34,557 nucleotides of DNA. It comes from a virus. The stretch spans positions 1 through 34,557 of the IMG/VR virus record IMGVR_UViG_3300035162_000704. One strand, written 5' to 3'. Positions 1,851 to 34,557 of this stretch are shown here, piece after piece. The notes beneath the pieces are model-generated. The model was not told the origin of the DNA. It worked only from the letters and a program-made list of their open reading frames with translations, and did no database searches. Made by a program: the position numbers and the translations under genes. The stretch's first letter is position 1. Each line of letters begins with the position of its first letter.

Positions 1851-2235
1851 CAACCAAGGTGTGTCGCAGATGCGACAACTGTGGGACAAGATGAAGGAAG
1901 CGCTAGACAGCGGTGTTGCCTTGGTTGTTCAGGTTGACAAAGAAACGCGGTCGCAAGAGCAAAACGCAATGTATCATTCAATCATTGACCAAATTGCAAA
2001 ACAAGCCAAACATTTAGGATCGTCTTGGGACTCTGAATCTTGGAAGCGGCTGCTGGTTGATACCTACACCAGAGAGATTGGGCAGGAAAGCGGAAAGGTC
2101 ATTCCGAATTTGACGGGCGATGGCATTGTCCAATTGGGATTGCAAACACGAAAATTTACCAAAGCACAAGCATCGGAATTTACCGAATGGCTTATAGCTT
2201 GGGCAGCGCAAAACGGGGTAACGCTACATGACTAA
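1828..2235 (+). CDS. ninB: NinB/Orf-family recombination mediator
   Basis: TRSQEQNAMYHSIIDQIAK...WDSESWKRLL...VIPNLTGDGIVQLG...ASEFTEWL lines up with the lambda NinB pattern (RSLDQN...LDAESWK...VVPNLAGNGFVV...). Confidence 0.85.
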   Translation: MKITLRNSNQGVSQMRQLWDKMKEALDSGVALVVQVDKETRSQEQNAMYHSIIDQIAKQAKHLGSSWDSESWKRLLVDTYTREIGQESGKVIPNLTGDGIVQLGLQTRKFTKAQASEFTEWLIAWAAQNGVTLHD

Positions 2236-2779
2236 AAGGTGCAAAGGATGCCGCGAGGTCTTTACAGCAGACCGGCCAATGCAGGTAGTGTGCAGCTACC
2301 TGTGCGCAATGGACATATCAAAAAAGATGGCGGCTAAGGCTGTGAGGGCTGACAAAAAAGAAACCAAGGTAAAGCTGGACGCTTTACAAACTAAGCCTCA
2401 ATTGACTAAGAAAGCTCAGACTGCTTTTAACGCATTCATCAGGGCTAGGGATGTAGGCAAGCCTTGCATAAGCTGTGATAAGCCGTTTGACCCAGCGCCC
2501 AACACCACTGACGCTGGTCATTTTCGGAGCGTAGGCAGTGCGCCACATATGCGTTTTGTGGAATGGAACTGCTATGGGCAATGCAAACATTGCAATATTT
2601 TTTTGGCAGGTAATTCGCTTGAGTACCGCAAACGCCTTTTAAGCAGGCTGGGTGAAAAAGAACTTGAATTGCTTGAGAATGACAACGTTTTGCGTAAGTA
2701 CACGCATGAAGGTTTAATTGAAATAGCAAGGCACTACAACGCAGAGACTAGACGGTTAACAAAAGAACGGTTAGACTGA
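2228..2779 (+). CDS. ninG: NinG/Rap-family recombination endonuclease
   Basis: N-terminal CxxC, then AQTAFNAFIRARDVGKPCISC...DAGHFRSVGSAPHMRF...CKHCN...GN...YR, as in lambda NinG. Confidence 0.85.
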   Translation: MTKRCKGCREVFTADRPMQVVCSYLCAMDISKKMAAKAVRADKKETKVKLDALQTKPQLTKKAQTAFNAFIRARDVGKPCISCDKPFDPAPNTTDAGHFRSVGSAPHMRFVEWNCYGQCKHCNIFLAGNSLEYRKRLLSRLGEKELELLENDNVLRKYTHEGLIEIARHYNAETRRLTKERLD

Positions 2780-2809
2780 AGTCCTCTCCTGCGTTTTGAT
2801 CGACGCTTT

Positions 2810-2837
2810 GGGCTACTATCGCGGTAGCCCTTTTTTT
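2810..2837 (+). terminator. Rho-independent terminator ending the replication/nin arm
   Basis: GGGCTAC-tatcgcg-GTAGCCC followed by T7. Confidence 0.8.
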
Positions 2838-2845
2838 GGTAAAAT
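2836..2845 (+). promoter_or_regulatory. Candidate extended -10 promoter TTGgTAAAAT
   Basis: TGn+TAAAAT lies immediately after the terminator and 23 nt before the SD-bearing ATG at 2869. The same decamer recurs at 12855. Confidence 0.45.
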
Positions 2846-2868
2846 ACCTGTAACTACATGGAGTTATT

Positions 2869-2991
2869 ATGGGAACGACAAACCAAATGATGCCAAAAAT
2901 GGCAAAGCCAGCTAAACCTGCGCCTAAGGGTAAGCCAATTCCTCGTGAGCTTCCTACGCGCAATCAGCGTGCAAGGACAAACAAGAAATGA
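2869..2991 (+). CDS. Tiny lysine/proline-rich basic protein (40 aa)
   Basis: GGAG SD upstream. Sequence MGTTNQMMPKMAKPAKPAPKGKPIPRELPTRNQRARTNKK. ATGA overlap with the next ORF. The antisense track ORF 2748..2963 is judged spurious. Confidence 0.55.
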   Translation: MGTTNQMMPKMAKPAKPAPKGKPIPRELPTRNQRARTNKK

Positions 2992-3152
2992 AAGCCGGAC
3001 TTTACTCCAACATCAACGCCAAGCAAAAACGCATTGCTGAAGGCTCTGGTGAGAAAATGAACAGGGTAGGCTCAAAGAACGCACCTTCAGCCCAAGCCTT
3101 TGCCAAAGCAGCTAAGACGGCTAAACCTTTTGTCAAAGCAAAGAAGAAATAA
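2988..3152 (+). CDS. Tiny basic protein (54 aa) with a GLYSNINAKQKRIAEGSGEKM motif
   Basis: Coupled at both ends (ATGA and TAATG). The motif resembles a small conserved peptide I recall from marine and T7-like phages, but I cannot name the family with certainty. Confidence 0.6.
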   Translation: MKAGLYSNINAKQKRIAEGSGEKMNRVGSKNAPSAQAFAKAAKTAKPFVKAKKK

Positions 3153-3298
3153 TGGCTAAAGGTCAAACACACTACCTGCCCAACGGCAAAGTCCATACTG
3201 GAAAAACACACAAAGAAGGCCGTGTTTTAATGTCTGGTGAAAAACATACACAAGCCAGTAAGGTGCTAACACACGCACCGCCCAAAAAGAAGAAGTAG
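3152..3298 (+). CDS. Tiny His/Lys-rich protein (48 aa), HYLPNGKVHTGKTHKEGRVLMSGEKH
   Basis: TAATG coupling to the upstream ORF. It ends 2 nt before ATG 3301. Confidence 0.55.
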   Translation: MAKGQTHYLPNGKVHTGKTHKEGRVLMSGEKHTQASKVLTHAPPKKKK

Positions 3299-3300
3299 TT

Positions 3301-4926
3301 ATGCCATCAATCTTTGACGATCCAGAAGCCTATGCGTTTTCAGACGACAAAGAGGAAGACTTACGTCGCAAACTAACCAACCAGCAGGCTTTTAACGCCA
3401 TGTTGCAGGGTGTGGGCGACTTGCCATACAGTCTGCTTGGCGCACCTGTAGAGATTGGTACTGGGTTGCTTAGATCAATGGGCATGGCTCAAGGTGAGCA
3501 AGTTGGCGGAATTGATTACATCAAGAGAAAAGCTACTGAGCTAGGCATTAGACCACCAGACTCAACCGACCCAACAATGCGCGATATGCGTATGGGTGCT
3601 GAGATTGTTTCAGGCGCTATTGACCCAACAAGGGTCGCAAGGGTTGGTGGCGTAGCGGCAACGGCTGCGGCAAGAAAAGCTGCGCCTATGGTCGGCAATG
3701 CTATAGAAAACTACATGGTCAAGGCTGGGTTAGCCCCAAGAATAGTCCCAGAAGGTGGATTACTAAAAAGAGATATTCCGGTTAAGCCGTCTACTGACGA
3801 CGTTTATGAAGTTATGGAGTCCAGCTTTGATTTTGGGAAAGTTGGTGCTAACAAAAATATGTCACTAGAGGATTTAATTGGTGGCGTAAGGATGAACGAC
3901 CCGAAAGAAGCTCAAAGAGTTAATGAGCTTGCTCAAAAAATGTCTAGCCCAGACGGGTATGTTTCCAGAATATTAGTAGATGATTTGGGTAACGTTCTTG
4001 AAGGGCAACACCGGCTTGAGGCTTTAAGACTACTTGGAGAGAAAAACGCTCCTGTTACCATTATTCAAGATTTAAGCAATAAATATAATATTTCAGAAAT
4101 GAAACAAGCCATAAGTGGCCAAATGCGTTCAGATCAATCCAACCAACTTATCAGAGAGGCAATTGATGCCCTTGAAGATTCTGGAAGTGTGGAAAAAGCG
4201 TTGGCAGAGTATTCAATGCCAAGTTACTTACAAAAACCTTTTGAAGACGCAATTAAGGCTTCAAAAATAACCCCGGTAAGCGGCAAGTCAGCCGCGCCGC
4301 AAACGGAGGCTTTGAAGGTTGCCCAGAGCAATGCCGCTTTACCTGTTGAGCAAGGAGGTCTTGGACTACCTGCCAATAACACGCCTATGGACAGAGCTAA
4401 GGCAATGGGGTTTGATGTTGACACAATAAGATACCACGGATCAGATGTTGAAATACACGGCTTTGATCCCAAAAAGTTTGGTAAAAACGACCAAGGTTGG
4501 TATGGCAGAGGAGTAACTACAGACACAGACCCAGAAATAGCAGCAGGATATGCGGATTACAACCAGCCGGAATCTGGCCAAGTAATTTACCCTTTGTTAA
4601 CAAAAGGTAAATACATGAACTGGCCTGATGGCCAGCCGCCATTTTCTTCTGCAAAAGATGCAATTGCTGGGACAAAAGATATGCAAAACTTGGGTTATTC
4701 TGGTACAAGAATAACAAATGACAGGGATTTATATGGCTCTACTCCTGATTTTGGTACGGAGCAGGTAACATTTCAGCCGCAAAACGTTCGTTCAGTAAAC
4801 GCTGCATTTGACCCACTAAGAAAGAATGACGCAGACTTACTTGCTGGAATAGGGGCTGGCGGTCTATTAGCAGTAGATGATGAAACAAAGCAGAAAGTGC
4901 AAAGTCTGTTAGGATACTCACAATAA
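3301..4926 (+). CDS. Polyvalent-type protein: ParB-like nuclease/N-terminal-domain module plus ART-PolyVal-like ADP-ribosyltransferase-like module
   Basis: aa 187-256: MSLEDLIGG...YVSRILVDDLGNVLEGQHRLEALRLLGEKNAPVTII (ParB N-domain pattern). aa 361-505: MGFDVDTIRYHGSDVEIHGFDPKKFG...GWYGRGVTTDTDPEIAAGYA...GYSGTRI...TEQVTFQPQNVRSVNAAFDP (ART-in-polyvalent-protein pattern). Confidence 0.6.
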   Translation: MPSIFDDPEAYAFSDDKEEDLRRKLTNQQAFNAMLQGVGDLPYSLLGAPVEIGTGLLRSMGMAQGEQVGGIDYIKRKATELGIRPPDSTDPTMRDMRMGAEIVSGAIDPTRVARVGGVAATAAARKAAPMVGNAIENYMVKAGLAPRIVPEGGLLKRDIPVKPSTDDVYEVMESSFDFGKVGANKNMSLEDLIGGVRMNDPKEAQRVNELAQKMSSPDGYVSRILVDDLGNVLEGQHRLEALRLLGEKNAPVTIIQDLSNKYNISEMKQAISGQMRSDQSNQLIREAIDALEDSGSVEKALAEYSMPSYLQKPFEDAIKASKITPVSGKSAAPQTEALKVAQSNAALPVEQGGLGLPANNTPMDRAKAMGFDVDTIRYHGSDVEIHGFDPKKFGKNDQGWYGRGVTTDTDPEIAAGYADYNQPESGQVIYPLLTKGKYMNWPDGQPPFSSAKDAIAGTKDMQNLGYSGTRITNDRDLYGSTPDFGTEQVTFQPQNVRSVNAAFDPLRKNDADLLAGIGAGGLLAVDDETKQKVQSLLGYSQ

Positions 4927-4961
4927 CTTACTAACCTCACCAACCCACAAGGGAGTGAACC

Positions 4962-5276
4962 ATGAATAAAATAGAAAGCGGAAATTCCGCAAACCTTACC
5001 AACAGAGGCAGGGGAAGACCCAAGGGGGCTGTTAACAAGGCTACCAAGGCGTTTAGAGACACAGTTAATGACCTACTAGAGGGTAACGCTGAAAACGTCT
5101 CTGTGTGGCTGCAAACAGTAGCTTACGGTGACGGCGATCAGTTAAGGCCAGACCCAAAGGGTGCGCTAGATATTCTGTCCAAGCTGGCAGAGTTTGCTAC
5201 ACCTAAACTGGCCAGAACAGAACACAGTGGCACTAACAACGAGCCTATTGAGATGAAGATCACATGGATGAAGTGA
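4962..5276 (+). CDS. terS: Terminase small subunit
   Basis: GGGAG SD. Sequence GRGRPKGAVNKATKAFRD...ILSKLAEFATPKLARTEH is typical of small terminases. It overlaps terL. Confidence 0.65.
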   Translation: MNKIESGNSANLTNRGRGRPKGAVNKATKAFRDTVNDLLEGNAENVSVWLQTVAYGDGDQLRPDPKGALDILSKLAEFATPKLARTEHSGTNNEPIEMKITWMK

Positions 5277-6526
5277 TTGAGATCAAATACGCACCAAGGG
5301 TACACCAGCAACAGATTCACGACTTACTGGATGCCAAGCGCTTTGCTGTAGTAGTAGCTCACAGACGATTCGGTAAGACTGTAAGCGCTATCAACCACTT
5401 GATCCGGGACGCAGTTCTAAACACCAGTGAAGCGCCACGCTACGCTTATATTGCTCCAACGTACAGCCAAGCCAAGCGGATTGCTTGGGATTACCTCATT
5501 AAGTACGTCCAGCCATTAGGCGCTGTTGTGAACATTGCTGAGTTGAGGGTGGACTTTTGGGGCAGGCGTATCCAGCTATACGGCTCAGACAACCCAGAAT
5601 CATTGCGTGGCCAATACTTTGATGGCGTGATTTTGGATGAGATTGGCGACCAGAACCCAGTTATCTGGACGGACATCATTCGACCAGCCTTGGCCGACCG
5701 CAAGGGATGGACGCTGTTTATTGGAACACCCAAGGGACACAACCACTTTCGCGAGTTGAGAGACAGAGCCTTAAAGGATGAGGACTGGGGCTTGCTAGAG
5801 TTCAAGGCCTCTGAGACTAATGTTGTTGACGCAAAAGAATTGCACGCCGCCCGTATAGAGATGGGGGAAAACAAGTTTCGCCAAGAATTCGAGTGTTCTT
5901 TTGACGCCGCAGTTGAAGGTAGTTATTATGGCCAAATCCTTAATAAAATTGAAGCTGATAACCACATCCAAGGCATACCCAGAGACGATATATGTCGCAC
6001 TGTCACTGCTTGGGACTTGGGGATGGGTGATTCGACTTCAATCTGGGTGGCTCAGATCGCTGGTTCGGAGATTCGACTGATTGACTACTACGAAAACAAC
6101 GGTGTAGGCCTAGACGTTTATATTAAGTGGCTGCGGGATAACGATTTTAACAAGGCTCAACACATATTGCCGCATGATGTAAGAGTTCGGGAGCTAGGAA
6201 CAGGCAAGAGCCGCTTGGAGGTACTTGAAGATGCTGGACTTGAAATTAGGGTTGCGCCTCGTATGTCAGTCGATGACGGAATCCAAGCCGTTCGTCGCTT
6301 GCTGCCACGGTGCTGGTTTAATGTGCCAAACGTGCAGATTGGGCTTAACTGCCTGCGAAACTACCGGCGCACGTATGATGAAAAGCGCAAGATATTTTTT
6401 GAGCGCCCATTGCATGACTGGTCATCTCATGGCTCTGATGCCTTTCGGTATCTTGCTATTGGCCTAGACGAAACCGCCTCAACTTGGGGCGAATCTATTA
6501 ACAAACCAGCAAGGTGGGTGGTCTAA
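5264..6526 (+). CDS. terL: Terminase large subunit
   Basis: Walker A-like AHRRFGKTVSAI and Walker B-like GVILDEIGD, with a C-terminal nuclease-like half. 420 aa. Confidence 0.9.
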   Translation: MDEVIEIKYAPRVHQQQIHDLLDAKRFAVVVAHRRFGKTVSAINHLIRDAVLNTSEAPRYAYIAPTYSQAKRIAWDYLIKYVQPLGAVVNIAELRVDFWGRRIQLYGSDNPESLRGQYFDGVILDEIGDQNPVIWTDIIRPALADRKGWTLFIGTPKGHNHFRELRDRALKDEDWGLLEFKASETNVVDAKELHAARIEMGENKFRQEFECSFDAAVEGSYYGQILNKIEADNHIQGIPRDDICRTVTAWDLGMGDSTSIWVAQIAGSEIRLIDYYENNGVGLDVYIKWLRDNDFNKAQHILPHDVRVRELGTGKSRLEVLEDAGLEIRVAPRMSVDDGIQAVRRLLPRCWFNVPNVQIGLNCLRNYRRTYDEKRKIFFERPLHDWSSHGSDAFRYLAIGLDETASTWGESINKPARWVV

Positions 6527-6700
6527 ATGTATTTACAGCCGCAGGGAATCAACCCAAAGATAGCGATGGACGCTTTGACTGCTAGGGTTGCAGCTTTGGA
6601 AAATATCATATATACACTACAATTGGACGTAAAACCCAAGCGTGGGCGACCACCAAAGGATAACAATGAAGCAGAGCAACGACCTAAAAGCGATAGTTGA
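6527..6700 (+). CDS. Possible 57-aa ORF between terL and the portal gene
   Basis: ATG immediately follows the terL stop. Sequence MYLQPQGINPKIAMDALTARVAALENIIYTLQLDVKPKRGRPPKDNNEAEQRPKSDS. It overlaps the portal start. Confidence 0.3.
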   Translation: MYLQPQGINPKIAMDALTARVAALENIIYTLQLDVKPKRGRPPKDNNEAEQRPKSDS

Positions 6701-8783
6701 CAGCGAAATACAAGATGCCATTGGGTATCTTGAGACCGAAACCGTTGAGGCTAGGCGTGACGCTTTACGCTCTTACCTGCGCCGACCTTATGGCAATGAG
6801 GTAGAAGGCAAGTCCTCTATAGTTACGGGTGAAGTGGCTGAAGCTATTGATGGCGCATTGCCCAGCTTAGTACGCATTTTCACAGGCTCTGATGAGATTA
6901 CCCAGTTTGATCCAGTTGCACAACGTGATGAGGCTTCAGCCAAGCAAGCCACAGACTACTGCAATTATGTCTTCTTGAAAGAAAACCACGGCGCAATAAT
7001 CCTGCATGACTGGATTAAAGACGCGCTGTTGCAGAAGGTCGGCATTGTCAAGGCATACTGGGAAGACAAGATTGACGTATCCAAAGAAACCTACGAAGGT
7101 CTAAGCGACGACGAAATCACGATCTTGCTGTCTGACAAGGACATTGAGATTGCTGAACAAGACACTGAGGAATTCCCAGTTCTTGACCAAATGGGCATGC
7201 AGGTGTTTGATGAGACGGGTATGCCGGTTGTTTACGGTGTACACAACGTCACAATCAAGCACAAAGAAAAGAGTGGCAAGGTAACGATTGAGAACGTCCC
7301 ACCAGAGGAGTTCTTAATATCGAAACGCGCCAAGACCATTGAAGACGCACCTTTTGTGGCTCACCGTCGCAATATCAGGCGTGGCGATCTAATCGCAATG
7401 GGATTTGATGAAGACATTGTTGAGACGCTATCCGCAAGCAGTGGCTTGATTTATCAAGCTGAACTGTTGACACGGTACGACAACAGCGAAATCCCAGACG
7501 AAAACAGCGCCTTGGATGAGTCAATGCAAGAGGTCGAGGTGTTTGAGTGCTACCTGCGTACCGACCAGAACAACGACGGCATACCAGAGCTACGACAAGT
7601 ATTCTTTGCTGACAACAAGATTTTGTCTGATGAGGAATGTGATTACATCCCTTTCTACTCAATTTGCCCAATTCCAATCCCGCACAAGTTTTTTGGCCAG
7701 TCACTAGCTGACAGGACAATGGACATCCAACTGATTAAGACGACTATCATGCGCCAGACGCTTGATAACCTGTACTTAACCAACAATGCAAGGGTCGTGG
7801 CTGTTGAGGGTCAAGTTAACTTAGATGACCTGCTAACCAGTACGGCTGGCGGCGTTATTCGTGCTAAGTCGCAAGGCGCAGTGCAGCAATTGGTTGTGCA
7901 AAACGTTGCCGCCCAGTCTTTCCCCATGCTGGAATACTTAGACCAAGTACAAGCTAAACGAACGGGCGTGTCAGATGCAAGCCAAGGTTTAGATGCTTCA
8001 GTGCTGCAAAACGTCACAGCCGCAGCTATTGCGTCTATGCAACAAAGTGGCGCAGGCAAGATTGAAATGATCGCTCGCATATTTGCTGAGACGGGTGTAA
8101 GAAACCTGTTCAAAGGGATCATGCATCTGGTAACAAAGTACCAGAACAAAGAAAAGATTATCCGATTGCGTGGCGAATATATCCCAATTGACCCACGCAC
8201 ATGGGCTACCGCCTACGATGTAACAGTCAACGTTGGCATTGGGGCTGGTGGTAATCGCCAAGAGCAGATGGCCACTCTAAACATGATTTCTACAAAGCAA
8301 GAGCAAATGCTGGCGGCTTATGGCCCAGCCAACCCATTTGTGTCTCCTGCCCAGTACCGCAACACTTTGGGTCGCATGGTCGAGGCGGCTGGCTTTAAGG
8401 ACTCCAACGAGTTCTACAAGCCAATTACTGCGGAACAAGACCAGCAGTTGAGCAACCCACCACCACAGCAGCCACAGCAAGACCCTGCGATGCAAATGGC
8501 ACAAGCCAAGATGCAGGCTGATTTGCAGATGGCTCAGGCTAAAATGCAGGCAGACATCCAACTGCAACAGGTCAAGGCTGAAGCCCAGATTGACTTGGAG
8601 CGCCAGAAGGCGGCTGCTGATTTGCAATTAGAGCGTGAGAAGTTTGCTATGCAGACCAAGCAGGCTGAGGCTGAGTTTGTGATGAAGACCAGACAGAAAG
8701 AGGCTGAGTTCCAAGCTGAGGTGCAAATCAAGACTGCAAAGGCAATGGCTGGCTTGCAGACCTCTGGCCAAATAATAGGGTAA
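6666..8783 (+). CDS. Portal protein with a long C-terminal coiled-coil (barrel-like) extension
   Basis: Position after terL, about 705 aa. I prefer ATG 6666 (AAGGA SD) over the track start at 6642. The C-terminus is Q/A/K/E-rich heptad-like sequence containing a tandem QMAQAKMQAD[LI] duplication. Confidence 0.85.
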   Translation: MKQSNDLKAIVDSEIQDAIGYLETETVEARRDALRSYLRRPYGNEVEGKSSIVTGEVAEAIDGALPSLVRIFTGSDEITQFDPVAQRDEASAKQATDYCNYVFLKENHGAIILHDWIKDALLQKVGIVKAYWEDKIDVSKETYEGLSDDEITILLSDKDIEIAEQDTEEFPVLDQMGMQVFDETGMPVVYGVHNVTIKHKEKSGKVTIENVPPEEFLISKRAKTIEDAPFVAHRRNIRRGDLIAMGFDEDIVETLSASSGLIYQAELLTRYDNSEIPDENSALDESMQEVEVFECYLRTDQNNDGIPELRQVFFADNKILSDEECDYIPFYSICPIPIPHKFFGQSLADRTMDIQLIKTTIMRQTLDNLYLTNNARVVAVEGQVNLDDLLTSTAGGVIRAKSQGAVQQLVVQNVAAQSFPMLEYLDQVQAKRTGVSDASQGLDASVLQNVTAAAIASMQQSGAGKIEMIARIFAETGVRNLFKGIMHLVTKYQNKEKIIRLRGEYIPIDPRTWATAYDVTVNVGIGAGGNRQEQMATLNMISTKQEQMLAAYGPANPFVSPAQYRNTLGRMVEAAGFKDSNEFYKPITAEQDQQLSNPPPQQPQQDPAMQMAQAKMQADLQMAQAKMQADIQLQQVKAEAQIDLERQKAAADLQLEREKFAMQTKQAEAEFVMKTRQKEAEFQAEVQIKTAKAMAGLQTSGQIIG

Positions 8784-8787
8784 AGCA

Positions 8788-10548
8788 ATGGCTACAATGA
8801 ATACGTCGAACGCACCTAATCTGTTAAGCACGCCTAATCAGGCTGGCCAGTTAAATGCACCTACCTCGCTATTGCAATCTCAACAGCCGATGTCTGGGCT
8901 GCTTAATTCCTCGTACTTTCCCGTTTCTAAACAGATGGGTCAGCCGGGGCAAGCAAACGACTTGATAAATATTACTCAGAACGCAGGCCAAGGCCCACAG
9001 TTGCAGAATGTCATTAACGCAGTGCAAGCTCAGTACAACCCAGAGACTTACACCGCAAACGGTCAAAGCTACGGGGCTGGGCGGTTTATGCAACCAACAG
9101 ACTTTGGCGCATTTACACCAGCGACATCACCGACTCCTGTGTTTTCGTTTACTCCGAGTGTGTTTGATATAAACAACTACCCAGCGCTTTCAAATATGCC
9201 AGCCGCGCCAGTAGTAGAGCCACCTATAATTGCCCCGGTTACAAATACAAGTGATGGCGGGTCAATCGACTATTCTTTACCGGAAACTAACACACCATTT
9301 AACTCAACAGGTCAACCCGGCGAACAAGCTAATGATTCTGCTTATGATCCGTATGATGCATTAATAAACCCATCAAGCAATTTAAGAACTGCTGCGGCTG
9401 CTATTCCGGGAATAGGTGGATTGGTGTCTCTGGGTCTTGGGGCTAAAGAAGGATGGGACAACGCAGCCGCAGCTAATGCTTTGGCAACGGGTATAGCGGC
9501 GTATGGTGAAGATGTGTCAGACCTGACAACAAATCGTTATACGGCGGCTATAGCCAAAGCGTTTGGGATTGATACCACAGGAATTCAAGCAGCAAAAGCA
9601 TTGGTAGGCCCAGATGGGACTTACAGCAGCGTTGAGAACTTATACGGGGATTTAACCGCTACAAATGACCCAACTGTTAAAGGTATAGTTGATTTTGTTA
9701 GCACTCGCAATGGCGCCCCTCAAAACGCTAATGCGGCTGGGAAACTTGGTTTTGACATTAGCACGCAAATACATTCAGTTATCGCTAGTCAGCGTGGTAT
9801 GGGCTTAAACGAGGCTGTTGCAATAGTTGCTCAAGCAAATGGTATGACTGCGGAACAGGCTACGGCACTTGCAGCCAATTTACCGCCTGATTCAATGATG
9901 CAAGAAGTGGCCAACAATCTGAACACTGGGGCAATGCCTGTTGTAAACGACACAACCGGATTATTAGGATCAACCGTTGATACATCTGTAGGCTTGCCAT
10001 CGCTACCCAACGTGTTTTCAGAGACATCAGCGCCGCCAGACTCAGTTACTAGAAGCCCTGCCACACCAAGACCGTCAGTGCAGGAATTTACGCCTGCTGA
10101 AAAAGCTGAATTTAATGATGCAATAGTGGCGGCGGCGGCGGTTGAGGGTAAGACCGTTCAGCAAAAGGCTTTAGAGGTTGCTATAAAGCAAGGCTACACA
10201 ATGTCTGAAGTTGACACAATGCTAGGTTTAACATCGGGATATGCTGCAAACTACGAGGCAACCGGTTTTTCTCAAGACGTAGCAAACTCTACCGCTAACA
10301 AAGCGATGTCACAAGCAGCAGCAGCAGTTGCAGCCGCAGGTGGCAATGTATCTAAGTCTCAAGCAGAAGCTATTGCTAACGCTACAGACGACCCAGTTGC
10401 GGCAATGATTGAGATTACGAAGAACGCGAATTACAACCAAAACAGCGGCAGCAGTGGATTCAGTGGTATGACTCCGGGTAATGCTGTGACAGACAGTTCT
10501 GGCCAAGCAGTCCGCACCGTTAATGGTGGCTATGTAACATCAGGCTAA
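8788..10548 (+). CDS. Low-complexity A/G/T/N/Q-rich virion-module protein (586 aa), function unknown
   Basis: Long ORF between the portal and scaffold genes. No recognisable catalytic motif. Confidence 0.7.
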   Translation: MATMNTSNAPNLLSTPNQAGQLNAPTSLLQSQQPMSGLLNSSYFPVSKQMGQPGQANDLINITQNAGQGPQLQNVINAVQAQYNPETYTANGQSYGAGRFMQPTDFGAFTPATSPTPVFSFTPSVFDINNYPALSNMPAAPVVEPPIIAPVTNTSDGGSIDYSLPETNTPFNSTGQPGEQANDSAYDPYDALINPSSNLRTAAAAIPGIGGLVSLGLGAKEGWDNAAAANALATGIAAYGEDVSDLTTNRYTAAIAKAFGIDTTGIQAAKALVGPDGTYSSVENLYGDLTATNDPTVKGIVDFVSTRNGAPQNANAAGKLGFDISTQIHSVIASQRGMGLNEAVAIVAQANGMTAEQATALAANLPPDSMMQEVANNLNTGAMPVVNDTTGLLGSTVDTSVGLPSLPNVFSETSAPPDSVTRSPATPRPSVQEFTPAEKAEFNDAIVAAAAVEGKTVQQKALEVAIKQGYTMSEVDTMLGLTSGYAANYEATGFSQDVANSTANKAMSQAAAAVAAAGGNVSKSQAEAIANATDDPVAAMIEITKNANYNQNSGSSGFSGMTPGNAVTDSSGQAVRTVNGGYVTSG

Positions 10549-10564
10549 CCATAACAGGATTTAA

Positions 10565-10850: not shown

Positions 10851-11828
10851 ATGGCAGACACCAACCCATCCGGGAGTGAAGCTCTAAATGTTAGCTCTGC
10901 GGCAGAGGCGTTTTTAGGATTAATGGGCGATGATGAGGGAGCTGATAGCCAACCCGAACTCGAACAAGATTCTGAGGAAGTAACTGTTGATGAAGCGGAT
11001 GAGTCTAGTGATTCTGAGGAAAGTCAAGAATACGAAGATGAATCCGAAGATGAATCTGATGAACCTAAGCCTGAACCCACGCGGTACAAGGTAAAGGCCG
11101 CTGGCGAAGAAGTCGAGGTCGAACTCGATGAACTCATTGCTGGCTACCAGAGAAGCAAGGACTATACACAAAAATCCCAAACACTTGCAGAGGCTCGTAA
11201 GTCTTTAGAGACTCAACAAGCACAAGTGGCAGAAATACAAAGAGAGCGCGAGGCGTACTCACAACGGCTAACAGCTATAGATAATTTCTTAGCCAAGCAA
11301 GAAGTGAGTCGAGAAAATATAGCGGAGTTGAAAGAGACTGACCCAATCGGCTATGCGATTGCAACAGCAGACCAGTATGAGCGAGATAAGCAACGCGAAG
11401 CGGTACGAGTAGAGCAAGCCGGGATTGCTGAAAAGCAACGATCCGACCACTCTGCGGGACTGCAAGCACACTTACAACGTGAGTCACAACTGTTAACTGA
11501 GGCAATCCCAGAAATGGCTGGCGAAGGTGGCAACAAGTTAAAGCAAGAGGTTATGGCCTATGCAAAGACTAAGGGCTACACAGACGAGCAGATTGGAAAA
11601 CTATATGACCATCGCGCAGTGGTCGCATTGCATGGGGCAATGAAATGGGAAGCGTTGCAGAAATCAAAACCAGAGGCGATGAAACGGGTGCAGGCCGCAC
11701 CTAAAGTGCTAAAGGCAGGAACTGCACCACCTTCAACAACCGGGCAACGCGACAAGCAAACTATGGCGCGGCTAAAGCAATCTGGACGAATCCAAGACGC
11801 AGCAGCCGCTTTTGAACGATTCTTGTAA
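10851..11828 (+). CDS. Scaffolding protein
   Basis: Immediately upstream of the capsid gene. Strongly acidic N-terminus (DESSDSEESQEYEDESEDESDE) followed by a long helical, coiled-coil-like sequence. Confidence 0.7.
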   Translation: MADTNPSGSEALNVSSAAEAFLGLMGDDEGADSQPELEQDSEEVTVDEADESSDSEESQEYEDESEDESDEPKPEPTRYKVKAAGEEVEVELDELIAGYQRSKDYTQKSQTLAEARKSLETQQAQVAEIQREREAYSQRLTAIDNFLAKQEVSRENIAELKETDPIGYAIATADQYERDKQREAVRVEQAGIAEKQRSDHSAGLQAHLQRESQLLTEAIPEMAGEGGNKLKQEVMAYAKTKGYTDEQIGKLYDHRAVVALHGAMKWEALQKSKPEAMKRVQAAPKVLKAGTAPPSTTGQRDKQTMARLKQSGRIQDAAAAFERFL

Positions 11829-11849: not shown

Positions 11850-12791
11850 ATGGCTGTTTATCAAACCTATACCGCAATTGGACAACGTGAAGACTTGTCC
11901 GACGTAATTGCGAACATCTCACCAACAGATACGCCTCTCATGTCCACAGTGGGCAAGACCAAGGCAACCGCTACTTACCATGAGTGGCAGACCGATTCAC
12001 TCGCAGACGCAGCATTGGGCGGCGCAGTCGAGGGCGCAGACGCTACCAGCGCAACGATGAATCCAACAACCCGTATTGGCAACCGTACACAGATTTTCCA
12101 AAAGACAATCGCTGTTGCTAACACATTGGATGCAGTCAACAAGGCCGGTCGCAAGTCAGAAAAGGCTTACCAATTGGCCAAGGCTTCATCTGAAGTTAAG
12201 CGCAATATCGAGTTGTCACTGTTGAGCAACCAAGTAACTAGTGCTGGTACTGCAACCCAAGCTCGTATCATGGGCGGCTTGCAAACATGGATTTCAACCA
12301 ACGGCGTATTTAATGACGGCACTACAGGCTCAGGCGGCACAACTGCCCGTGTCGAAGGTACTGGCCAGACATTTACAGAAGCCATGTTGAAAGAAGTCGT
12401 TAAGGAAGTCTACGCAAGCGGCGGCAAGCCTACTATCCTGATGGTTAGCCCTGCACACAAGCAAGTGGTTAGCACTTTCGCAGGTATTGCTGCCCAACGC
12501 TACGAAGCTCCTAAGTCTTCAGCCACAACCATCATCGGTGCTGCTGACGTTTACTTGAGCGATTTTGGCACAATGTCTGTTGTTCCTAACCGCTTTATGA
12601 ACGCCGCTAATCAGGGTGATACTTGTGCTTTGGTACTTGACCCAGACTACGCTTCAGTAAGCTACTTGCGTCCTTTCTCAACCAGCGAATTGGCACGCAC
12701 TGGTGACTCTGAAAAGACACAAATCATCTGTGAGTTGACTCTGGAAGTTAAGAACGAAGCCGCTCACGGCATCATTGGCGACTTGTTGTAA
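11850..12791 (+). CDS. Major capsid protein (HK97 fold, SU10-type family)
   Basis: N-terminal signature YTAIGQREDLSDVIANISPTDTPLMSTVGKTKATATYHEWQTDSLA. GGAG SD. A strong terminator follows. Confidence 0.85.
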   Translation: MAVYQTYTAIGQREDLSDVIANISPTDTPLMSTVGKTKATATYHEWQTDSLADAALGGAVEGADATSATMNPTTRIGNRTQIFQKTIAVANTLDAVNKAGRKSEKAYQLAKASSEVKRNIELSLLSNQVTSAGTATQARIMGGLQTWISTNGVFNDGTTGSGGTTARVEGTGQTFTEAMLKEVVKEVYASGGKPTILMVSPAHKQVVSTFAGIAAQRYEAPKSSATTIIGAADVYLSDFGTMSVVPNRFMNAANQGDTCALVLDPDYASVSYLRPFSTSELARTGDSEKTQIICELTLEVKNEAAHGIIGDLL

Positions 12792-15232: not shown

Positions 15233-16014
15233 TGTTTAGAACCGTACCAGTTTTTGGCGCAGATCAACGCTCAGTTGCTGAGGTGTTGCGTAACGCTATG
15301 ATGGGCAAGACAAACAACACCGGATCAATTACACTTGCCACAGGTGGTGCATTGACTACAACGCTCTCAGACGAGCGTATTAGCCCAGACAGCAAGATAG
15401 TGTTGATTCCATTCTCTGACGCAGCAGAGAGCGATTCAATACCGTTTGCGGAGCTTTACTGTACGGCTGGCCAATCGGCGGCGGTAATTGACACGGCTTA
15501 CCCGCTTGGATTCAATACTACCCCAGCCTTAAATGGCGTAACGCTAACCAATACAAGTCGGATCAATGTATTAAACGCAGGCGAGTATTCGTTCAATGTT
15601 GGCTACCAACTGCAAAACACTGATAACGCGCAGCATGAAGTTAGTATTTGGTTTAGAAAAAATGGGGCGGACATTGCGTACAGTAACCGTTTAATCACTG
15701 TTCCGTCGCGAAAAAGCGCAACAATATTTGGTTTTACGTCCTCATCTACTGAGGTGTTTGCCGACCTTGCTGCTAACGATTATCTGGAAGTAGTGTGGTC
15801 TACCTCAAGCACTTTGGTGACGTTCTTTGCAACTGGCGCACAATCTAGCCCAACTAGACCGGAAACGCCTTGCAAATATGCGATGGTGAAATACATATCA
15901 CCAAGGTCGATTGCGGACGTTTATGTAAGCGCACAAGCAAAAGGGTCGGCTACTGTATCGCACTTTGCAAACAGTACGGCAGATAAAACCTATGGCTATA
16001 TAGTCATTGGTTGA
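15232..16014 (+). CDS. Structural protein with a C-terminal C1q/TNF-like jelly-roll-looking half
   Basis: TAATG coupling. The C-terminal half (INVLNAGEYSFNVGYQLQNTDNAQHEVSIWFRKNGADIAYSN...LAANDYLEVVW) shows a pattern typical of BclA/C1q-like knobs. Confidence 0.4.
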   Translation: MFRTVPVFGADQRSVAEVLRNAMMGKTNNTGSITLATGGALTTTLSDERISPDSKIVLIPFSDAAESDSIPFAELYCTAGQSAAVIDTAYPLGFNTTPALNGVTLTNTSRINVLNAGEYSFNVGYQLQNTDNAQHEVSIWFRKNGADIAYSNRLITVPSRKSATIFGFTSSSTEVFADLAANDYLEVVWSTSSTLVTFFATGAQSSPTRPETPCKYAMVKYISPRSIADVYVSAQAKGSATVSHFANSTADKTYGYIVIG

Positions 16015-16020
16015 AATTTA

Positions 16021-16029
16021 TTGTAAAAT
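16021..16029 (+). promoter_or_regulatory. Variant of the TTG(N)TAAAAT motif (TTGTAAAAT)
   Basis: Intergenic, 47 nt upstream of ATG 16076 (AAGGAA SD). It lacks the 1-nt spacer of a canonical extended -10. Confidence 0.3.
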
Positions 16030-16075
16030 GACTGTAGGACGACCGCCTACGAGTCCAAACTAAAAGGAATCCTTT

Positions 16076-16879
16076 ATGGCGGAAGTAAATTACTCAACGG
16101 TTACTAACACAACTGCACCAAGCGCAGAAATTGCACCATACATGCAATATGGCTTGAGTGAAGCACAACGTTTATACCAAGCTGGTGGCTCACCAATAGC
16201 AGGTCAATCAAGCGCTACTCAGGCAGGTTTGCAGGCGATGACCAATCGCGCAACAGCCGGATCACCTTTAATGGGCGCGGCACAGACGCAACAAATGGGA
16301 ACTATTGCTGGCGATTACTTGTCAGGCAACCCGTTCTTTCAAGGCGCGTTTCAACCAGCCGCACAAGCTGCAACATCGACGTTCAACAACGCCATCGGTA
16401 ACATTGGCTCACAAGCCTCTCGCGCAGGTAGGTATGGTTCGGGTGCGTTTGGCGACTTGCAAAACCAAGCAAGTGGCCAACTAGCTCAGGGCTTGACAAA
16501 TACGGCTGGGCAACTGGCGTATCAGAACTACGCAAACGAGCGTGGTCGTCAGGAGCAGGCAGCTACTAATGCGCCCTCAATGGCTCAGTCTGATTACTTT
16601 GATATTCAGAATCTGTTGGGTGCTGGTAACGTGCAAGATCAGTACTCACAGATGCAGAACAACCAGCCCCAAGTTGCTTTACAGAATTACCTGTCTAGCT
16701 TAGGTATGAACATGGGGCAATCTAGCACCCAGAGTACGCCTTATTACACGAACGACACGGCCAACACGCTTGGCGATGTGTCCTCTGTAGCTAACATAAT
16801 TGGCAAACTGACCAACCAAAGTAATGGCCCAAGCGTAATGCAACAGGGTTACGACTGGTTTAAGAACTTTGGGAGCTAA
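16076..16879 (+). CDS. Internal virion/ejection-type protein (Q/G/A-rich, 267 aa)
   Basis: Composition and position upstream of two larger internal-protein-like ORFs and the fibre gene. Confidence 0.45.
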   Translation: MAEVNYSTVTNTTAPSAEIAPYMQYGLSEAQRLYQAGGSPIAGQSSATQAGLQAMTNRATAGSPLMGAAQTQQMGTIAGDYLSGNPFFQGAFQPAAQAATSTFNNAIGNIGSQASRAGRYGSGAFGDLQNQASGQLAQGLTNTAGQLAYQNYANERGRQEQAATNAPSMAQSDYFDIQNLLGAGNVQDQYSQMQNNQPQVALQNYLSSLGMNMGQSSTQSTPYYTNDTANTLGDVSSVANIIGKLTNQSNGPSVMQQGYDWFKNFGS

Positions 16880-16882
16880 TAA

Positions 16883-18205
16883 ATGGCAAATTTAAACGGA
16901 TTATTAGGCGGCGGTAGACAAATGCCCAGCTTCCTTGGTGGCCTATTAGGTGACGAGGAAGAATACCGACGTTTGCAGCAACAAGCTCAAAGTAGCTCGT
17001 TGGGCGACATGGCCAGTGCTTTTTACAAGGCTGGCGCACCAAGCCGCGTGCCGGGCGGTAGTACATTGCAAGCCATCAACGAGGGCATGAGGGCACAGGA
17101 GTCTGGCTACAAGCGCTCTATGAACGAGCAATTGCAGGAAAAGATTGCACAGCAGAAGATGCGTCAAGAAATGGCATCGCGTGATCGTCAGGCAAAGGCT
17201 CAAGTTTTAGCACCTCAACTGATAGGTCAACCAACGCGCCCAGACACGCCTTTGATGGACAACTATGGCAGGGAGCAAGCTGGGCCTAATATGCCACGCG
17301 CAGGCGGTGTAAACCCAAATGTATTGAACCAATTGCTTGGACTTGGCGCAGAAGGCCAAAAGTCAGTGTCAGACAGATTTGCAATAGCAAAACTAATGCA
17401 GCCAGAAATGTTCTCAGTTGCACCGGGTGCTGTCCAACTTTCGCGTGATCCGATTACTGGCGAAACCAAGCAAGTGGCGGCTGGCGCTCCAAAGACATCT
17501 AACTCTCAACTTGATTTCGCATTTGCAAAAACTCCAGAAGGCGGTGGTTTTAAAGGAACATTTGAAGACTTCAAAAACTTATCTGGCACTAAGATAACAA
17601 ACACTGTTAACCCGTTGCAGCCAACAAAAAGTGTTATTAACGGTTTGCAGGATTCACTGATTAACGGTGGCGAAAGACGTATGAGGTACAACCAAATTGA
17701 GGCAACATTTGATCCAAAGTACCTCAATGTGCCTTACCGCGCAGGCCAAGCATGGTTGTCTCTAAAAGAAAAATTTAGCGAACTGTCAGAAGAAGAAAAA
17801 CAAAATCTCAGAGAGTTTTCACAATTTAGGCAAAACTCAGTAAACAACTTGAGTAAGTCAATTCAAGAAATTACTGGCGCGGCTATGGGTGTTGAGGAAG
17901 CAAAGCGAATAACAGCAGGTTTGCCCAACCCCGGCGTAGGCTTAACGGATGGAGATAGCCCAACAGAGTTTAAAGCAAAGCTAGATCAAACAATCTATCA
18001 GTTAAAACTGGTCGAGGCACGAACAGTCTATTTGCTCGCGAATGGCCTTACTTTAGGAAGCGTCTCTCTTGATGCAATGCCAAACATTATTAACCGGCGT
18101 GCTAAAGAAATAGCGAAGCGGGACAATATAGACCTAAGCACCACAGCGGGGCAGTCGTTGATTAAGCAACAACTTTCCGCGGAGTTTGGTATTTCAACGC
18201 AATAG
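16883..18205 (+). CDS. Internal virion/ejection-type protein (440 aa)
   Basis: Gene order resembles the T7 gp14-16 block. No enzymatic motif seen. Confidence 0.4.
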   Translation: MANLNGLLGGGRQMPSFLGGLLGDEEEYRRLQQQAQSSSLGDMASAFYKAGAPSRVPGGSTLQAINEGMRAQESGYKRSMNEQLQEKIAQQKMRQEMASRDRQAKAQVLAPQLIGQPTRPDTPLMDNYGREQAGPNMPRAGGVNPNVLNQLLGLGAEGQKSVSDRFAIAKLMQPEMFSVAPGAVQLSRDPITGETKQVAAGAPKTSNSQLDFAFAKTPEGGGFKGTFEDFKNLSGTKITNTVNPLQPTKSVINGLQDSLINGGERRMRYNQIEATFDPKYLNVPYRAGQAWLSLKEKFSELSEEEKQNLREFSQFRQNSVNNLSKSIQEITGAAMGVEEAKRITAGLPNPGVGLTDGDSPTEFKAKLDQTIYQLKLVEARTVYLLANGLTLGSVSLDAMPNIINRRAKEIAKRDNIDLSTTAGQSLIKQQLSAEFGISTQ

Positions 18206-18212
18206 GGTTTTT

Positions 18213-23200: not shown

Positions 23201-23688
23201 TAACAGCATTTAAAGAGTACACGATTGGAGTCGGTGGCGGTATATCTTCAGCCTTATCAGGTGCGCTGCTGCAAGGTAACAACTTGTCTGATGTGCTCGA
23301 TGCTGCAACTGCAAGAACAAATTTAAGTGTTGTTGGCATAACAGATACACAGACGCTGACAAACAAGACCATCACTGGTGTTGTTGAGACTAAGGTGGCA
23401 ATGGCAGCACACGCTATTGACCTGTCCTTAGGCAACTACTTCACCTACACTTTGTCTGGCGCTCAAACACTAACTGTCAGTAACGTAGCTGCTAGTGGCT
23501 CTGTAAGTGCATTTGTGCTTGAAGTGACCAATGGTGGCTCTGCTGCCTTGACATTCTTTAGTGGCGTGACTTGGGCTGCTGCTACACCTCCTACACTTAC
23601 CGCTGCTGGTGTTGACAACCTAGCCTTCTTTACCTCAGACGGTGGCACGACTTGGAGAGGCTTTGTCCTTGGATTGGGGATGGCGTAA
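20284..23688 (+). CDS. Tail fibre protein (1134 aa)
   Basis: Three copies of the fibre motif ...L(A/G)xPxxxxDAA(T/S)KxY(V/T/I)D, a GNVT repeat tract, NNLSDVLDAATARTNLSV and an A/S/T-rich coiled segment. Confidence 0.85.
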   Translation: MAKTKISEFDATQINNTDIDNINIAEGCAPSGINNAIRELMAQLKDFQTGTAGDSLTVGGNLAVTGTSTHTGALAANGGITGTTAVVSSLTVNTSAVIASADINAGTIDGAVIGGAAAQAVTGTLITASTGFVGGVTGAVVGNVTGNVTGSVTGNVVGNLIGNVTGDVTGNVTATTGTTTLADVIIRGGLDMDAGTSATITNLAAPTNSGDAATKGYTDAQTALKLSLSGGTMSGAIAMGANKITGLGTPTADADAASKIYVDGLVQGLDAKASCVAASTANLTLSGAQTIDGVSVVAGNRVLVKDQSTASANGIYVAAAGAWARSTDADTWDELVSAFVFVEGGTANADNGFTCTNNAGGTLGSTAVTWVQFSGAGQITAGDGLSKTGNTINVGTAAAGRIVVNADNIDLATTGISAGTYRSVTIDAYGRATAGTTPTTISGYSISDAYTKTEIDTTVSGLLAKTGGTMSGAIALGTNKLTGVGDPTSAQDAATKNYIDVLFGSTTSAAASAATAATRAGEAATSAGNASTSETNASASATAANDSKIAAAASYDAFDDRYLGSKSSSPSVDNDGNALLTGALYWDTTASQMRVYTGNSWVATGSAVNGTTSREVYTANSSQTTFAVVYDAGYVDVYLNGVKLVAGTDFTATSGTNIVLATAATDGDIVDIVAYGAFALADVYTKAASDARYATAAQGAGTGVTSTYVSSVTVGGTTFAQPAVTGEINSDEGFVQVNYAGATGITVTTLTSASTYVYIDKNGALQQQTTEPTRQDWSRKMFTMRIAVDTTTNLVLGFEYLNNPIGRYANSIRDVYSFLLSNGVPFKKDQTVTGRAGDLGFDVSAGTMLEFGGTGDIYDPNILSFSSVANAAFFLSTRTAFDAGGNTNLPKFWDNAGTITALGSTTVVGHRLYRFSNGNICLQYGQGNYANMTLAKTGALLEDYVLNPALENATFFGWWFIESTATNTAGTTLTAFKEYTIGVGGGISSALSGALLQGNNLSDVLDAATARTNLSVVGITDTQTLTNKTITGVVETKVAMAAHAIDLSLGNYFTYTLSGAQTLTVSNVAASGSVSAFVLEVTNGGSAALTFFSGVTWAAATPPTLTAAGVDNLAFFTSDGGTTWRGFVLGLGMA
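20683..20802 (+). repeat. Ten tandem 12-nt units encoding G-[NGASD]-[VL]-[TVI]
   Basis: GGVT GAVV GNVT GNVT GSVT GNVV GNLI GNVT GDVT GNVT read in frame. This tract generates the spurious antisense ORF 20409..20936. Confidence 0.9.
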
Positions 23689-34226: not shown

Positions 34227-34557
34227 AAATTGGACGCACTTTCAGCACTACAAAGACCGCTGCCCACCTTGGATTAAATTGCATAAAGAGTTGTTAAACG
34301 ACCGTTCTTTTATGACTCTGCCAACCGCTAGCAAGGCGCTAGCACCTTTGTTGTGGTTGCTAGCAAGTGAGACAAAGGACGGCTCATTTGATGCCTCTAT
34401 TGATGAGTTGGTGTTTCGACTGCGTATGCCTGAGTCTGACATTAAGACTGGACTCAAGTCTTTGATTGATAAAGGTTTTTTTATTGACGATAGCAACGTG
34501 CTAGCAGACCGCTATCAAGATGCTATACCAGAGACAGAGACAGAGACAGAGACAGAG
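34216..34557 (+). CDS. Replication initiation protein, N-terminal part. The gene continues across the circular junction into 2..520, about 244 aa in total.
   Basis: ATG at 34216 overlaps the stop of the upstream ORF. The reading frame runs through the overlap into ORF 32..520. N-terminal sequence: MKPKNWTHFQHYKDRCPPWIKLHKELLNDRSFMTLPTASKALAPLLWLLASE, typical of phage replication/DnaD-O-like N-termini. Confidence 0.75.
   Translation, partial: MKPKNWTHFQHYKDRCPPWIKLHKELLNDRSFMTLPTASKALAPLLWLLASETKDGSFDASIDELVFRLRMPESDIKTGLKSLIDKGFFIDDSNVLADRYQDAIPETETETETE
34431..34557. repeat. Right copy of the 127-bp terminal overlap
   Basis: Identical to bases 1-127. Confidence 0.95.

Follow-up and report, generated by a model that had tools for sequence, protein, structure and literature searches.

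A compact, probably virion-delivered phage protein of the polyvalent type, with exchangeable ParB-fold and PARP-like cassettes, encoded beside the terminase genes

Polyvalent proteins, known from phages and conjugative elements, are single chains in which several effector-type domains of unrelated kinds are joined (Iyer, Burroughs, Anand, de Souza & Aravind 2017, PMC5512222). Packaging in the head has been predicted both for these proteins and for the phage ADP-ribosyltransferases (ARTs) whose genes adjoin those for terminase and portal (PMC5512222, PMC9503650). They form a large, almost wholly computational category, the testing of which has been hindered by their size and by the lack of simple models, and our literature search found no experimental study of an ART-PolyVal protein. 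Two further systems invite comparison: the MuF toxins (Jamet et al. 2017, PMC5576092) and SPP1 gp7/Mu F, in which a constant N-terminal part linked to the portal/terminase region is joined to hypervariable C-terminal enzymes which, it has been proposed, travel inside the head and are passed on along with the DNA; and T4 Alt, an ART that is made late, packaged, injected and active on host proteins early in infection (PMC5512222, PMC9503650). Here we describe the gene at positions 3,301–4,926 of a viral DNA of 34,557 nucleotides (IMG/VR virus record IMGVR_UViG_3300035162_000704, positions 1 to 34,557; hereafter the window), the 541-residue product of which we read, with moderate confidence, as a compact polyvalent effector, made late and probably delivered in the virion, of a podophage that is lambdoid in type and has a head module like that of SU10. 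Proteins of this kind are already known and predicted; new are the minimal two-slot version at a fixed locus, the unnamed N-terminal domain (N-domain) and C-terminal peptide that frame it, the natural swap variants in near-identical phages, and an abundant ART cassette without the strand-2 tyrosine that defines the family.

The protein shares with the polyvalent proteins their vocabulary of ART-PolyVal, ParB/sulfiredoxin (Srx), GNAT, PBECR5 and LPD23 domains (in relatives), a late or virion context and combinatorial shuffling, and it brings at least two effector-type domains together in one phage polypeptide. However, it is very small and stand-alone, with two enzymes, as had been remarked in an earlier note on this DNA, made from the sequence alone, which set it apart from giant DarB-like proteins; the MPTase, helicase and methylase modules of the latter were absent from the Pfam and PHROG scans. 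It further differs in that Thr stands for Tyr in the ART core, in that the modules are framed by the N-domain, a linker and the C-terminal peptide, and in that the cassettes are swapped at one fixed locus. Compared with MuF proteins, the N-domain has no detectable Phage_Mu_F similarity, the gene lies 5′ of terS rather than 3′ of the portal gene, and there are two variable slots instead of one, with no immunity gene. The working model for T4 Alt can be carried over to this protein, but Alt belongs to the R-S-E clade whereas the ART here is H-Y-E/PARP-like by fold and motif (HGS...Y...E), and the two are not homologous beyond the ART superfamily fold.

The reading frame, which begins with ATG, is the sole long open reading frame (ORF) of its stretch, and because a protein search returned 268 homologues and the identical protein occurs on four contigs, it is a real gene. 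The peptides quoted in that note were all present in the translation (ILVDDLGNVLEGQHRLEALRLLGEKNAPVTII, residues 224–255; IRYHGS, 376–381; GWYGRGVTTDTDPEIAAGYA, 399–418; and TEQVTFQPQNVRSVNAAFDP, 486–505). Its division of the protein into a ParB-like and an ART-like module stood, although it was incomplete, an N-domain, a helical linker and a C-terminal peptide being present as well. Comparison of homologues resolved the chain into what reads as a constant frame, made up of these three parts, and two independently exchangeable putative enzyme cassettes (Table 1).

Module independence was assessed by BLASTP of the query against 120 homologues, and boundaries were set by DNA comparison with syntenic contigs. 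The DNA of two such contigs (L002 and L003) is 90–96% identical to the window over 2,200–3,765, 4,277–4,421 and 4,759–6,600, and similarly so over most of the remaining genome, whereas similarity is absent at 3,766–4,276 and 4,422–4,758, which places the swap breakpoints at 3,765/3,766, 4,276/4,277, 4,421/4,422 and 4,758/4,759. The protein of these two phages (P0005) has a GNAT domain in slot 1 and a different ART-PolyVal core in slot 2, and the linker between the slots retains 95.9% DNA identity to L002 though both neighbouring segments are replaced there. A third contig (L004, protein P0025) shares only 3,284–3,765 and 4,861 onward, with about 530 residues of unrelated, unannotated cargo between them; DNA identity on the 3′ side returns at 4,759 in L002 and at 4,861 in L004. 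Regardless of the cassette upstream, the terS-like/terL region has 93.5% DNA identity to L002, and the portal gene and its neighbours about 92%. The outer breakpoints fall in linkers modelled with a low predicted local distance difference test score (pLDDT; residues 145–155 and 324–331). Cleavage at the linkers by a prohead protease was considered and rejected, a scaffolding protein being present and no protease gene having been seen between portal and capsid.

The linker (consensus APQxEALxxAQxNAALPVEQGGLGLPxxNTxMDRAKAMGF) was found in 60 of the 120 listed family proteins, ahead of many different cores, and its helices at residues 333–346 and 362–368 had pLDDT values above 90. Slot 2 of the 60 family proteins with the linker and an RS..A.FDP motif held roughly 15 core types, unrelated-looking to each other; most were taken to be strongly diversified ART cores because HG[ST] and aromatic-x-[ST] are kept, and at least three looked non-ART, an example being the 'HFSR...GTHVG' type. 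In P0010, P0028, P0043, P0112 and P0118 this last type reads 'VHFSR.GGDYTELDSGK[FY]A.APFDAVGTHVG...', lacks HG[ST] and has no Pfam family, and it may be an unrecognised effector domain. The N-domain is fused elsewhere to GNAT plus ART, to GNAT, to a PBECR5 RNase (92.8 bits), to ART alone and to unknown domains, and the ParB module recurs downstream of GNAT or with other C-terminal parts.

A full-length AlphaFold model, for which a 39-row alignment of the family (A1) was used, had pLDDT values of 89–96 over residues 160–320 and mostly of 80–95 over residues 335–510, with low confidence for residues 1–155 and the short linkers 145–155, 324–331 and 513–524. Foldseek searches of the PDB with this model returned pNOB8 ParB-N (5k5d; E=6.7e-4, probability 0.99), sulfiredoxin (probability 1.0, TMt 0.53–0.64), SbnI (probability 1.0) and the ParB–CDP/CTP structures of M. 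xanthus and B. subtilis, Noc and PadC, the ParB/Srx matches overall having probabilities of 0.95–1.0. Residues 160–320 are thus predicted to hold the ParB/Srx alpha+beta core fold, and the ParB-like module of the earlier note is confirmed at the level of the modelled fold. Sequence profiles gave less: Pfam ParB_N had no match in the query at E≤10 or in the 39 family members at E≤0.01, precomputed ParB_N matches of homologues were only faint, and the DdrB-like ParB family (PF18763) was absent from Pfam scans of the query (E≤10) and of family members. PHROG families of the ParB type matched the query with E=1e-6 to 1e-1, the best being the ParB-like N-terminus of phrog_498, 'DNA methyltransferase' (E=1e-6). 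Because the family profile against PDB sequences gave no significant match (only SerK, at E about 1; the SerK link through NCBIfam, at E=0.008, was likewise marginal), the domain calls were drawn from the fold search and the homologues.

Cassette 1 carries a GGVR motif (residues 194–197) and the motif E234-G-Q-H-R238 (nucleotides 4,000–4,014), the latter within a block, VLEGQHRLEAL, that shows at most conservative changes among the listed ParB-module homologues. EGQHR includes a conserved arginine of the active-site type and aligns with dGhHR of SerK ('leGqHRleaL' in cassette 1 and 'vdGhHRwagL' in SerK, a shared [DE]-G-x-H-R motif). The core fold is common to SerK, SbnI, sulfiredoxin, Osa and the ParB-methylase nucleases, but sequence similarity to these ParB/Srx enzymes outside partition is marginal (E about 0.01 to 1). 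On model and motif together, cassette 1 may be an enzyme that binds nucleoside triphosphates, its EGQHR, which differs from the GERRxR of the CTP-clamp branch, coming nearest to the DGHHR of the nuclease/kinase branch. A partition ParB acting as a CTP-dependent clamp, which would be marked by GERRxR, a centromere-binding HTH, a C-terminal dimerisation domain and a ParA partner, was rejected, since the motif is EGQHR, a short helical extension and then the ART module follow the core, and a sister phage has GNAT in place of the module; cassette 1 also lacks a C-terminal dimerisation domain and a ParA partner, no ParA match being found among the window ORFs scanned.

For cassette 2, Pfam ART-PolyVal (PF18760) scored the query at 15.1 bits (E=0.041, residues 378–430), below its cut-off of 31.2 bits, and phrog_4700 matched the start of the ART region (E=7e-6). 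ART-PolyVal matches were present in 20 of the 39 aligned family members (E≤0.01; best 7.4e-10), and the syntenic P0005 scored 36.4 bits, above the curated cut-off. The profile hidden Markov model (HMM) check that the earlier note had proposed was therefore positive for the homologues, whereas the query alone was sub-threshold for ART-PolyVal and without a ParB_N match, and because the HMM evidence on the query alone was weak, fold-level tests were made. A separate model of residues 326–541 (alignment A2) had pLDDT 80.8 and a predicted template modelling score (pTM) of 0.76, and 48 of its 50 best PDB matches were PARP-family domains (PARP1/2/3/4/13 and tankyrase), while the remaining two were deposited as a RES toxin and as a PE-like toxin; match probabilities were 0.8–1.0, with PARP3 (4l7p, E=1.2e-3) the best and PARP13 (4x52) at 1.0. 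A viral structure library returned multi-domain phage proteins labelled ParB/Sulfiredoxin, N-acetyltransferase and ART-PolyVal-like (E 2e-11 to 1e-3), crAss-like phage proteins among them. The isolated ART core (126 residues) used as a protein-search query gave no match, very likely through a word-index limit, as the full-length query found many cores. Residues 333–510 are predicted by the model to have a PARP-like ADP-ribosyltransferase fold of the H-Y-[EDQ] type; the ART-PolyVal-like module described in the earlier note thus agrees with the fold and with the homologues, and both of the folds on whose significant HMM or structural match that note had staked its reading, ParB and ART, were matched.

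The polyvalent-protein ART family is defined by a His in strand 1, a Tyr in strand 2 and an Asp in strand 5 (PMC5512222), and the core here is best written H-T-E, because Thr406 replaces the Tyr, and Glu487 probably the Asp, of that definition. His379 (RYHGS) lies in a predicted strand (377–381) and is at least 90% conserved in A2; Ala414 and Pro431 are invariant and Tyr417 (A..Y motif) is at least 90% conserved in the same alignment; and Glu487, Glu and not Asp, is invariant in the query's cassette type and lies in a predicted strand (484–490), the strand numbering being that of the model. The aromatic column of the G-x-G-[VI]-[YFW] motif is occupied by Thr406 (GRGVTT) in all A2 sequences of the query's cassette type and by Tyr, Phe or Trp in nearly all other types, so that the replacement noticed in the earlier note is a property of the whole type. 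The equivalence of the Tyr and Thr406 columns follows from an intermediate homologue, P0117, in which GWYGDEGVYLTPDP aligns with GWYGRGVTTDTDP of the query. Against PARP1 (H862, Y896, Y907 and E988), we take Thr406 to correspond to Y896 and Tyr417 to Y907. The block GWYGRGVTTDTDPE is nearly invariant across proteins that are 50–70% identical elsewhere, which argues that the site is under strong constraint and not decaying.

Judged from the modelled fold, cassette 2 would be an NAD+-dependent ADP-ribosyltransferase of the H-Y-E clade ART-PolyVal. Alternatively, the Thr406 type could be catalytically altered, acting as an NAD+ glycohydrolase, as a binder of NAD+ or ADP-ribose or as a pseudoenzyme, an explanation that fits any delivery model; the exchange of the aromatic residue throughout the type and the score of the query under the Pfam cut-off speak for it. 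However, His379, Tyr417, Pro431 and Glu487 are conserved and the near-invariance of GWYGRGVTTDTDPE implies strong selection on the site, and Trp400 and Tyr401 beside the pocket motif might supply the aromatic contact; we regard such an alteration as rather unlikely.

The N-domain, with the motif G.GD.PY.L.G.PV[DE]...G..[DE][WY][IL]K.K.T..GIRP....DPT, is 72–99% identical in family proteins that pair it with other cargo and has no Pfam or PHROG match of its own. When 1.84 billion proteins were searched by phmmer, 179 cluster representatives passed E≤1e-3, and 62 of these E≤1e-10 (N-domain alignment A4). Carriers outside the small family are 700–2,255 residues long (median 984) with the domain near mid-chain, and Pfam scans of 45 carriers found the SLT lytic transglycosylase domain (15), DUF6973 (9), PcfJ (5), LPD23 (2), ART-PolyVal (1) and Peptidase_M91 (1). 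Among 68 viral-contig loci surveyed for context, two phages of about 62 kb, whose portal belongs to the same PHROG family as that of the window, encode an N-domain carrier between terL and portal, one of them with LPD23 above the curated cut-off. Its presence in large SLT- and LPD23-bearing proteins, some of them between terL and portal, marks the N-domain as an accessory domain, so far without a name, that genuine large polyvalent proteins of the terminase/portal neighbourhood carry. The large-carrier version found no match by tblastn in GenBank phages. At least two other N-terminal types occur in the family, and a P22-type phage has one divergent copy of the window type.

At the other end of the chain, most of the listed family proteins share the pattern '...[DE]EE.[KR]K..SLL[GE][YQE]', including proteins with non-ART cargo (P0064 with PBECR5, P0088 with ParB only, and P0025 and P0089 with unknown cargo). 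The RS..A.FDP motif that precedes it was found in only two of 146 large N-domain carriers and thus belongs to the ART end rather than to the N-domain system.

In seven contigs the gene immediately precedes a terS-like ORF and terL; six of these have an SU10-type portal (L002, L003, L004, L005, L007 and L009) and one has a P22-type portal and coat (L008). At the same place, GenBank MW202462, with a portal 64% identical, has a 304-aa 'hypothetical protein' that combines another N-terminal type with '...HEFGY' cargo as in P0107. More remote homologues with ParB+ART occur in L006 (a 62-kb contig of JGI 3300005690), surrounded by adaptor, tail and ejection genes, and in MW202573, between the tail adaptor and a 'stabilization protein'. 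Near its homologue, L006 also encodes a 1,040-aa polyvalent-protein InPase protein (15,542–18,664) and a muramidase/peptidoglycan-binding protein, and the tail/ejection module of this phage seems to hold a number of distinct effector proteins. In Methylophilales phage Venkman, which among cultured phages has the most similar portal, no large gene of the kind is annotated ahead of the terminase, so the gene is taken to be accessory.

Table 1. Coordinates of the gene, its modules and candidate active-site residues, and the adjoining features of the window
Feature	Residues	Nucleotides	Strand	Basis and remarks
Whole gene, modular polyvalent-type protein	541 aa	3301..4926	+	ORF, translation, homologues, synteny
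N-terminal module, unnamed, conserved, mostly helical	1–155	3301..3765	+	homologue comparison, phmmer
Cassette 1, predicted ParB/sulfiredoxin-fold domain + helical extension	156–325	3766..4276	+	AlphaFold model, Foldseek, PHROG
Helical linker	326–374	4277..4421	+	conserved DNA to L002
Cassette 2, predicted PARP-like ART core	375–486	4422..4758	+	ART-PolyVal, phrog_4700, fold search
His379	379	4435–4437
Thr406	406	4516–4518		canonical aromatic position
Tyr417	417	4549–4551
Glu487	487	4759–4761
C-terminal flank	487–541	4759..4926	+	E487, last ART strands, RS..A.FDP, low-confidence linker, terminal helix
Terminal helix/peptide ...LLAVDDETKQKVQSLLGYSQ		~4861–4923	+	helix 527–536 in model
Strong intrinsic-terminator-like hairpin + T7 run (GGGCTACC...GGTAGCCC plus T7)		2810..2837	+	8-bp stem, 5 G-C pairs; just 3′ of NinG-like gene
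Three tightly packed Lys-rich mini-ORFs	40/54/48 aa	2869–2991, 2988–3152, 3152–3298	+	directly 5′ of gene
Putative terS	104 aa	4962–5276	+	by position only; overlaps terL; 36 nt 3′ of gene
terL		5264–6526	+	phrog_2, E=1.8e-33; Terminase_6N weak
Portal, SU10-type		6642–8783		phrog_1216, E=8e-165

In the window, NinB-like and NinG-like genes lie 5′ of the locus, and genes for scaffold (10,851–11,828), capsid (11,850–12,791), ejection-type and tail-fibre proteins lie 3′ of the portal gene; the placement directly upstream of the terminase genes, and downstream of three tiny basic ORFs, was correctly described in the earlier note. The terminator-like hairpin, judged by its sequence, appears to mark the boundary ahead of the operon that holds the gene, and no sigma-70-like promoter was found in 2,200–5,400 (0 found versus 3.6 expected). 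Because a terminator lies upstream, no promoter-like site was found and packaging and head genes follow, the gene is presumably co-transcribed with these in a late operon; a moron with its own promoter was rejected on the same lack of a promoter-like site in that interval. No Q-like antiterminator gene was obvious between the NinG-like gene and the late genes.

On the reading that we favour, that of a compact polyvalent effector delivered in the virion, synthesis of the protein would coincide with that of the head and packaging proteins, its recruitment to the head or portal region would fall to the N-domain, the C-terminal peptide or both, it would enter the next host cell with the DNA, and the two enzymes would there act separately on nucleic acid or protein targets of the host, probably in defence or takeover. 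Such a course agrees with the published computational model for polyvalent proteins and for phage ARTs with genes beside those for terminase and portal (PMC5512222, PMC9503650). A virion-associated protein is indicated by the occurrence of the N-domain in large proteins between terL and portal and by the homologues among adaptor and ejection genes. Several findings weigh on the other side. Among phages that have been cultured or studied by proteomics, none turned up with a close homologue. The query's ART-PolyVal score is sub-threshold and it has no ParB_N match; the N-domain models poorly (pLDDT 25–69) and matches no known head-targeting domain; the C-terminal peptide is on no other protein of the window; Venkman has no large gene of the kind annotated at this position; and, as Thr406 replaces a listed active-site residue, transferase activity does not appear assured.

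A more specific form of this reading would make the constant N-domain and the '...EE.KK..SLLG[YQE]' C-terminal peptide loading signals by which enzyme cargo of any kind would attach to the portal or the inside of the capsid in SU10-/P22-type podophages, the locus then being plug-and-play and the H-T-E ART having a non-canonical NAD+ chemistry or acceptor. The closest analogy is with the cargo-loading peptides of encapsulins, and we offer the proposal as speculative and, taken as a whole, unlikely.

The same two enzymes could instead act late in the producing cell, unpackaged, where they might counter abortive infection or another defence, use up or divert NAD+, or alter the DNA or proteins of the phage ahead of packaging, for example by DNA ADP-ribosylation guided by the ParB-like domain. 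The position in a late/packaging operon, which alone is established, fits any late function, and phage ParB folds are fused to DNA-modifying enzymes at the same genome position (the phrog_498 match). However, the recurrence of the N-domain in SLT- and LPD23-bearing proteins between terL and portal, and the distant homologues among adaptor and ejection genes, point away from an unpackaged protein, and the independent swapping of ParB and ART disfavours an obligatory guidance of one domain by the other. We consider action confined to the producing cell improbable, though not negligibly so.

Still less probable, in our judgement, is a phage-borne polymorphic toxin in the MuF sense, with particles that deliver a toxin against competitors of the lysogen. 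A constant N-terminal part followed by hypervariable C-terminal enzymatic cassettes, in a phage with a lambdoid-type early region, does follow a MuF-like logic (PMC5576092), but no immunity-like ORF lies 3′ of the variable cassettes, the next ORF, 36 nt downstream, being the conserved terS-like gene, and the N-domain had no Pfam Phage_Mu_F match even at E≤10. Nor was an integrase or a CI-type repressor matched among the scanned ORFs of at least 90 aa, of which that of the ERF recombinase was the only leftward one, so that a benefiting lysogen is not established.

A DNA-packaging accessory, with a ParB-like domain that would work with terS/terL by binding the pac region or nicking it, recommends itself by the position directly 5′ of the terS-like ORF in all close relatives and by the ability of ParB-fold proteins to bind and nick DNA (PMC5512222), but was rejected as highly improbable because a sister phage with a 93.5% identical terS-like/terL region has GNAT in the ParB slot, because L004 has wholly unrelated cargo and because Venkman, with a related portal, has no such large gene annotated before the terminase; this terminase can therefore package without the ParB module.

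As a minimal, dissectable version of a polyvalent protein, the locus offers one short frame, two enzyme slots, natural swaps and candidate head-targeting parts. If the frame does load cargo into capsids, this would explain how effectors arrive in the next host, and the frame might be put to use as a carrier for proteins of choice. The Thr-for-Tyr ART outnumbers every other cassette type in the sequences retrieved and is strongly conserved, and we see in it a candidate for an atypical activity, either ADP-ribosylation or NADase, in the conflict between marine phages and their hosts. If none of this holds, the gene is a correctly recognised, ordinary member of a predicted effector class.

Megablast of 20 kb of the window found no match among GenBank phages, and tblastn of the 541-aa protein gave one distant match, to the ART part only. 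A scan of genome collections with A2 returned only distant matches (27–48% identity) in metagenome-assembled genomes of many phyla, and because these are distant and scattered no host could be assigned. The window has no tRNA genes and, apart from this gene, no paralogue of the N-domain or of the ART domain.

The first 127 bp of the window are identical to the last 127 bp (1–127 and 34,431–34,557), which indicates a complete assembly, circular or terminally redundant, of about 34,430 bp; tandem CAGAGA repeats lie at 99–133 and 34,529–34,557, a perfect hexamer array, (CAGAGA)x5-6, closing the overlap. In its early region the phage resembles lambdoid phages, with an ERF recombinase gene (32,552–33,160, minus strand), NinB and NinG, and the early regions of relatives (L002, L005 and L007–L009) have DUF1376, RusA and Cro-like genes. 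The three mini-ORFs at 2,869–3,298, which open the operon just past the terminator, are very basic, each with a K-rich tail, and had no family match; those of 54 and 48 aa are conserved in L002/L003, and a small ORF at this position in L009 has DUF6496. They could encode DNA-binding or internal head proteins.

Between terL and portal lies a 57-aa ORF (6,527–6,700) that overlaps the portal start, and ORFs of 57–60 aa are conserved at this position in L002, L004, L005, L007 and L009. Directly after the portal gene, 8,788–10,548 encodes a low-complexity protein of 586 aa (A/G/N/S/T/Q-rich) that matched no family in PHROG, Pfam or NCBIfam. In the L002 counterpart (542 aa) unrelated DNA stands in place of the C-terminal third (9,928–10,550), and the equivalent post-portal genes of relatives encode 163–581 aa; the protein is possibly one more variable component of the internal or ejection kind. 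Two paralogous tail-fibre-like genes (23,652–25,592 and 26,085–28,052; phrog_19943/24898), with a 158-aa ORF between them and a tail-fibre-assembly gene after them (28,091–28,600), have near-identical C-terminal ends, ...NTDYIDPLASGFTVTSSAPAALNASGG[ST]YIFLAIA.

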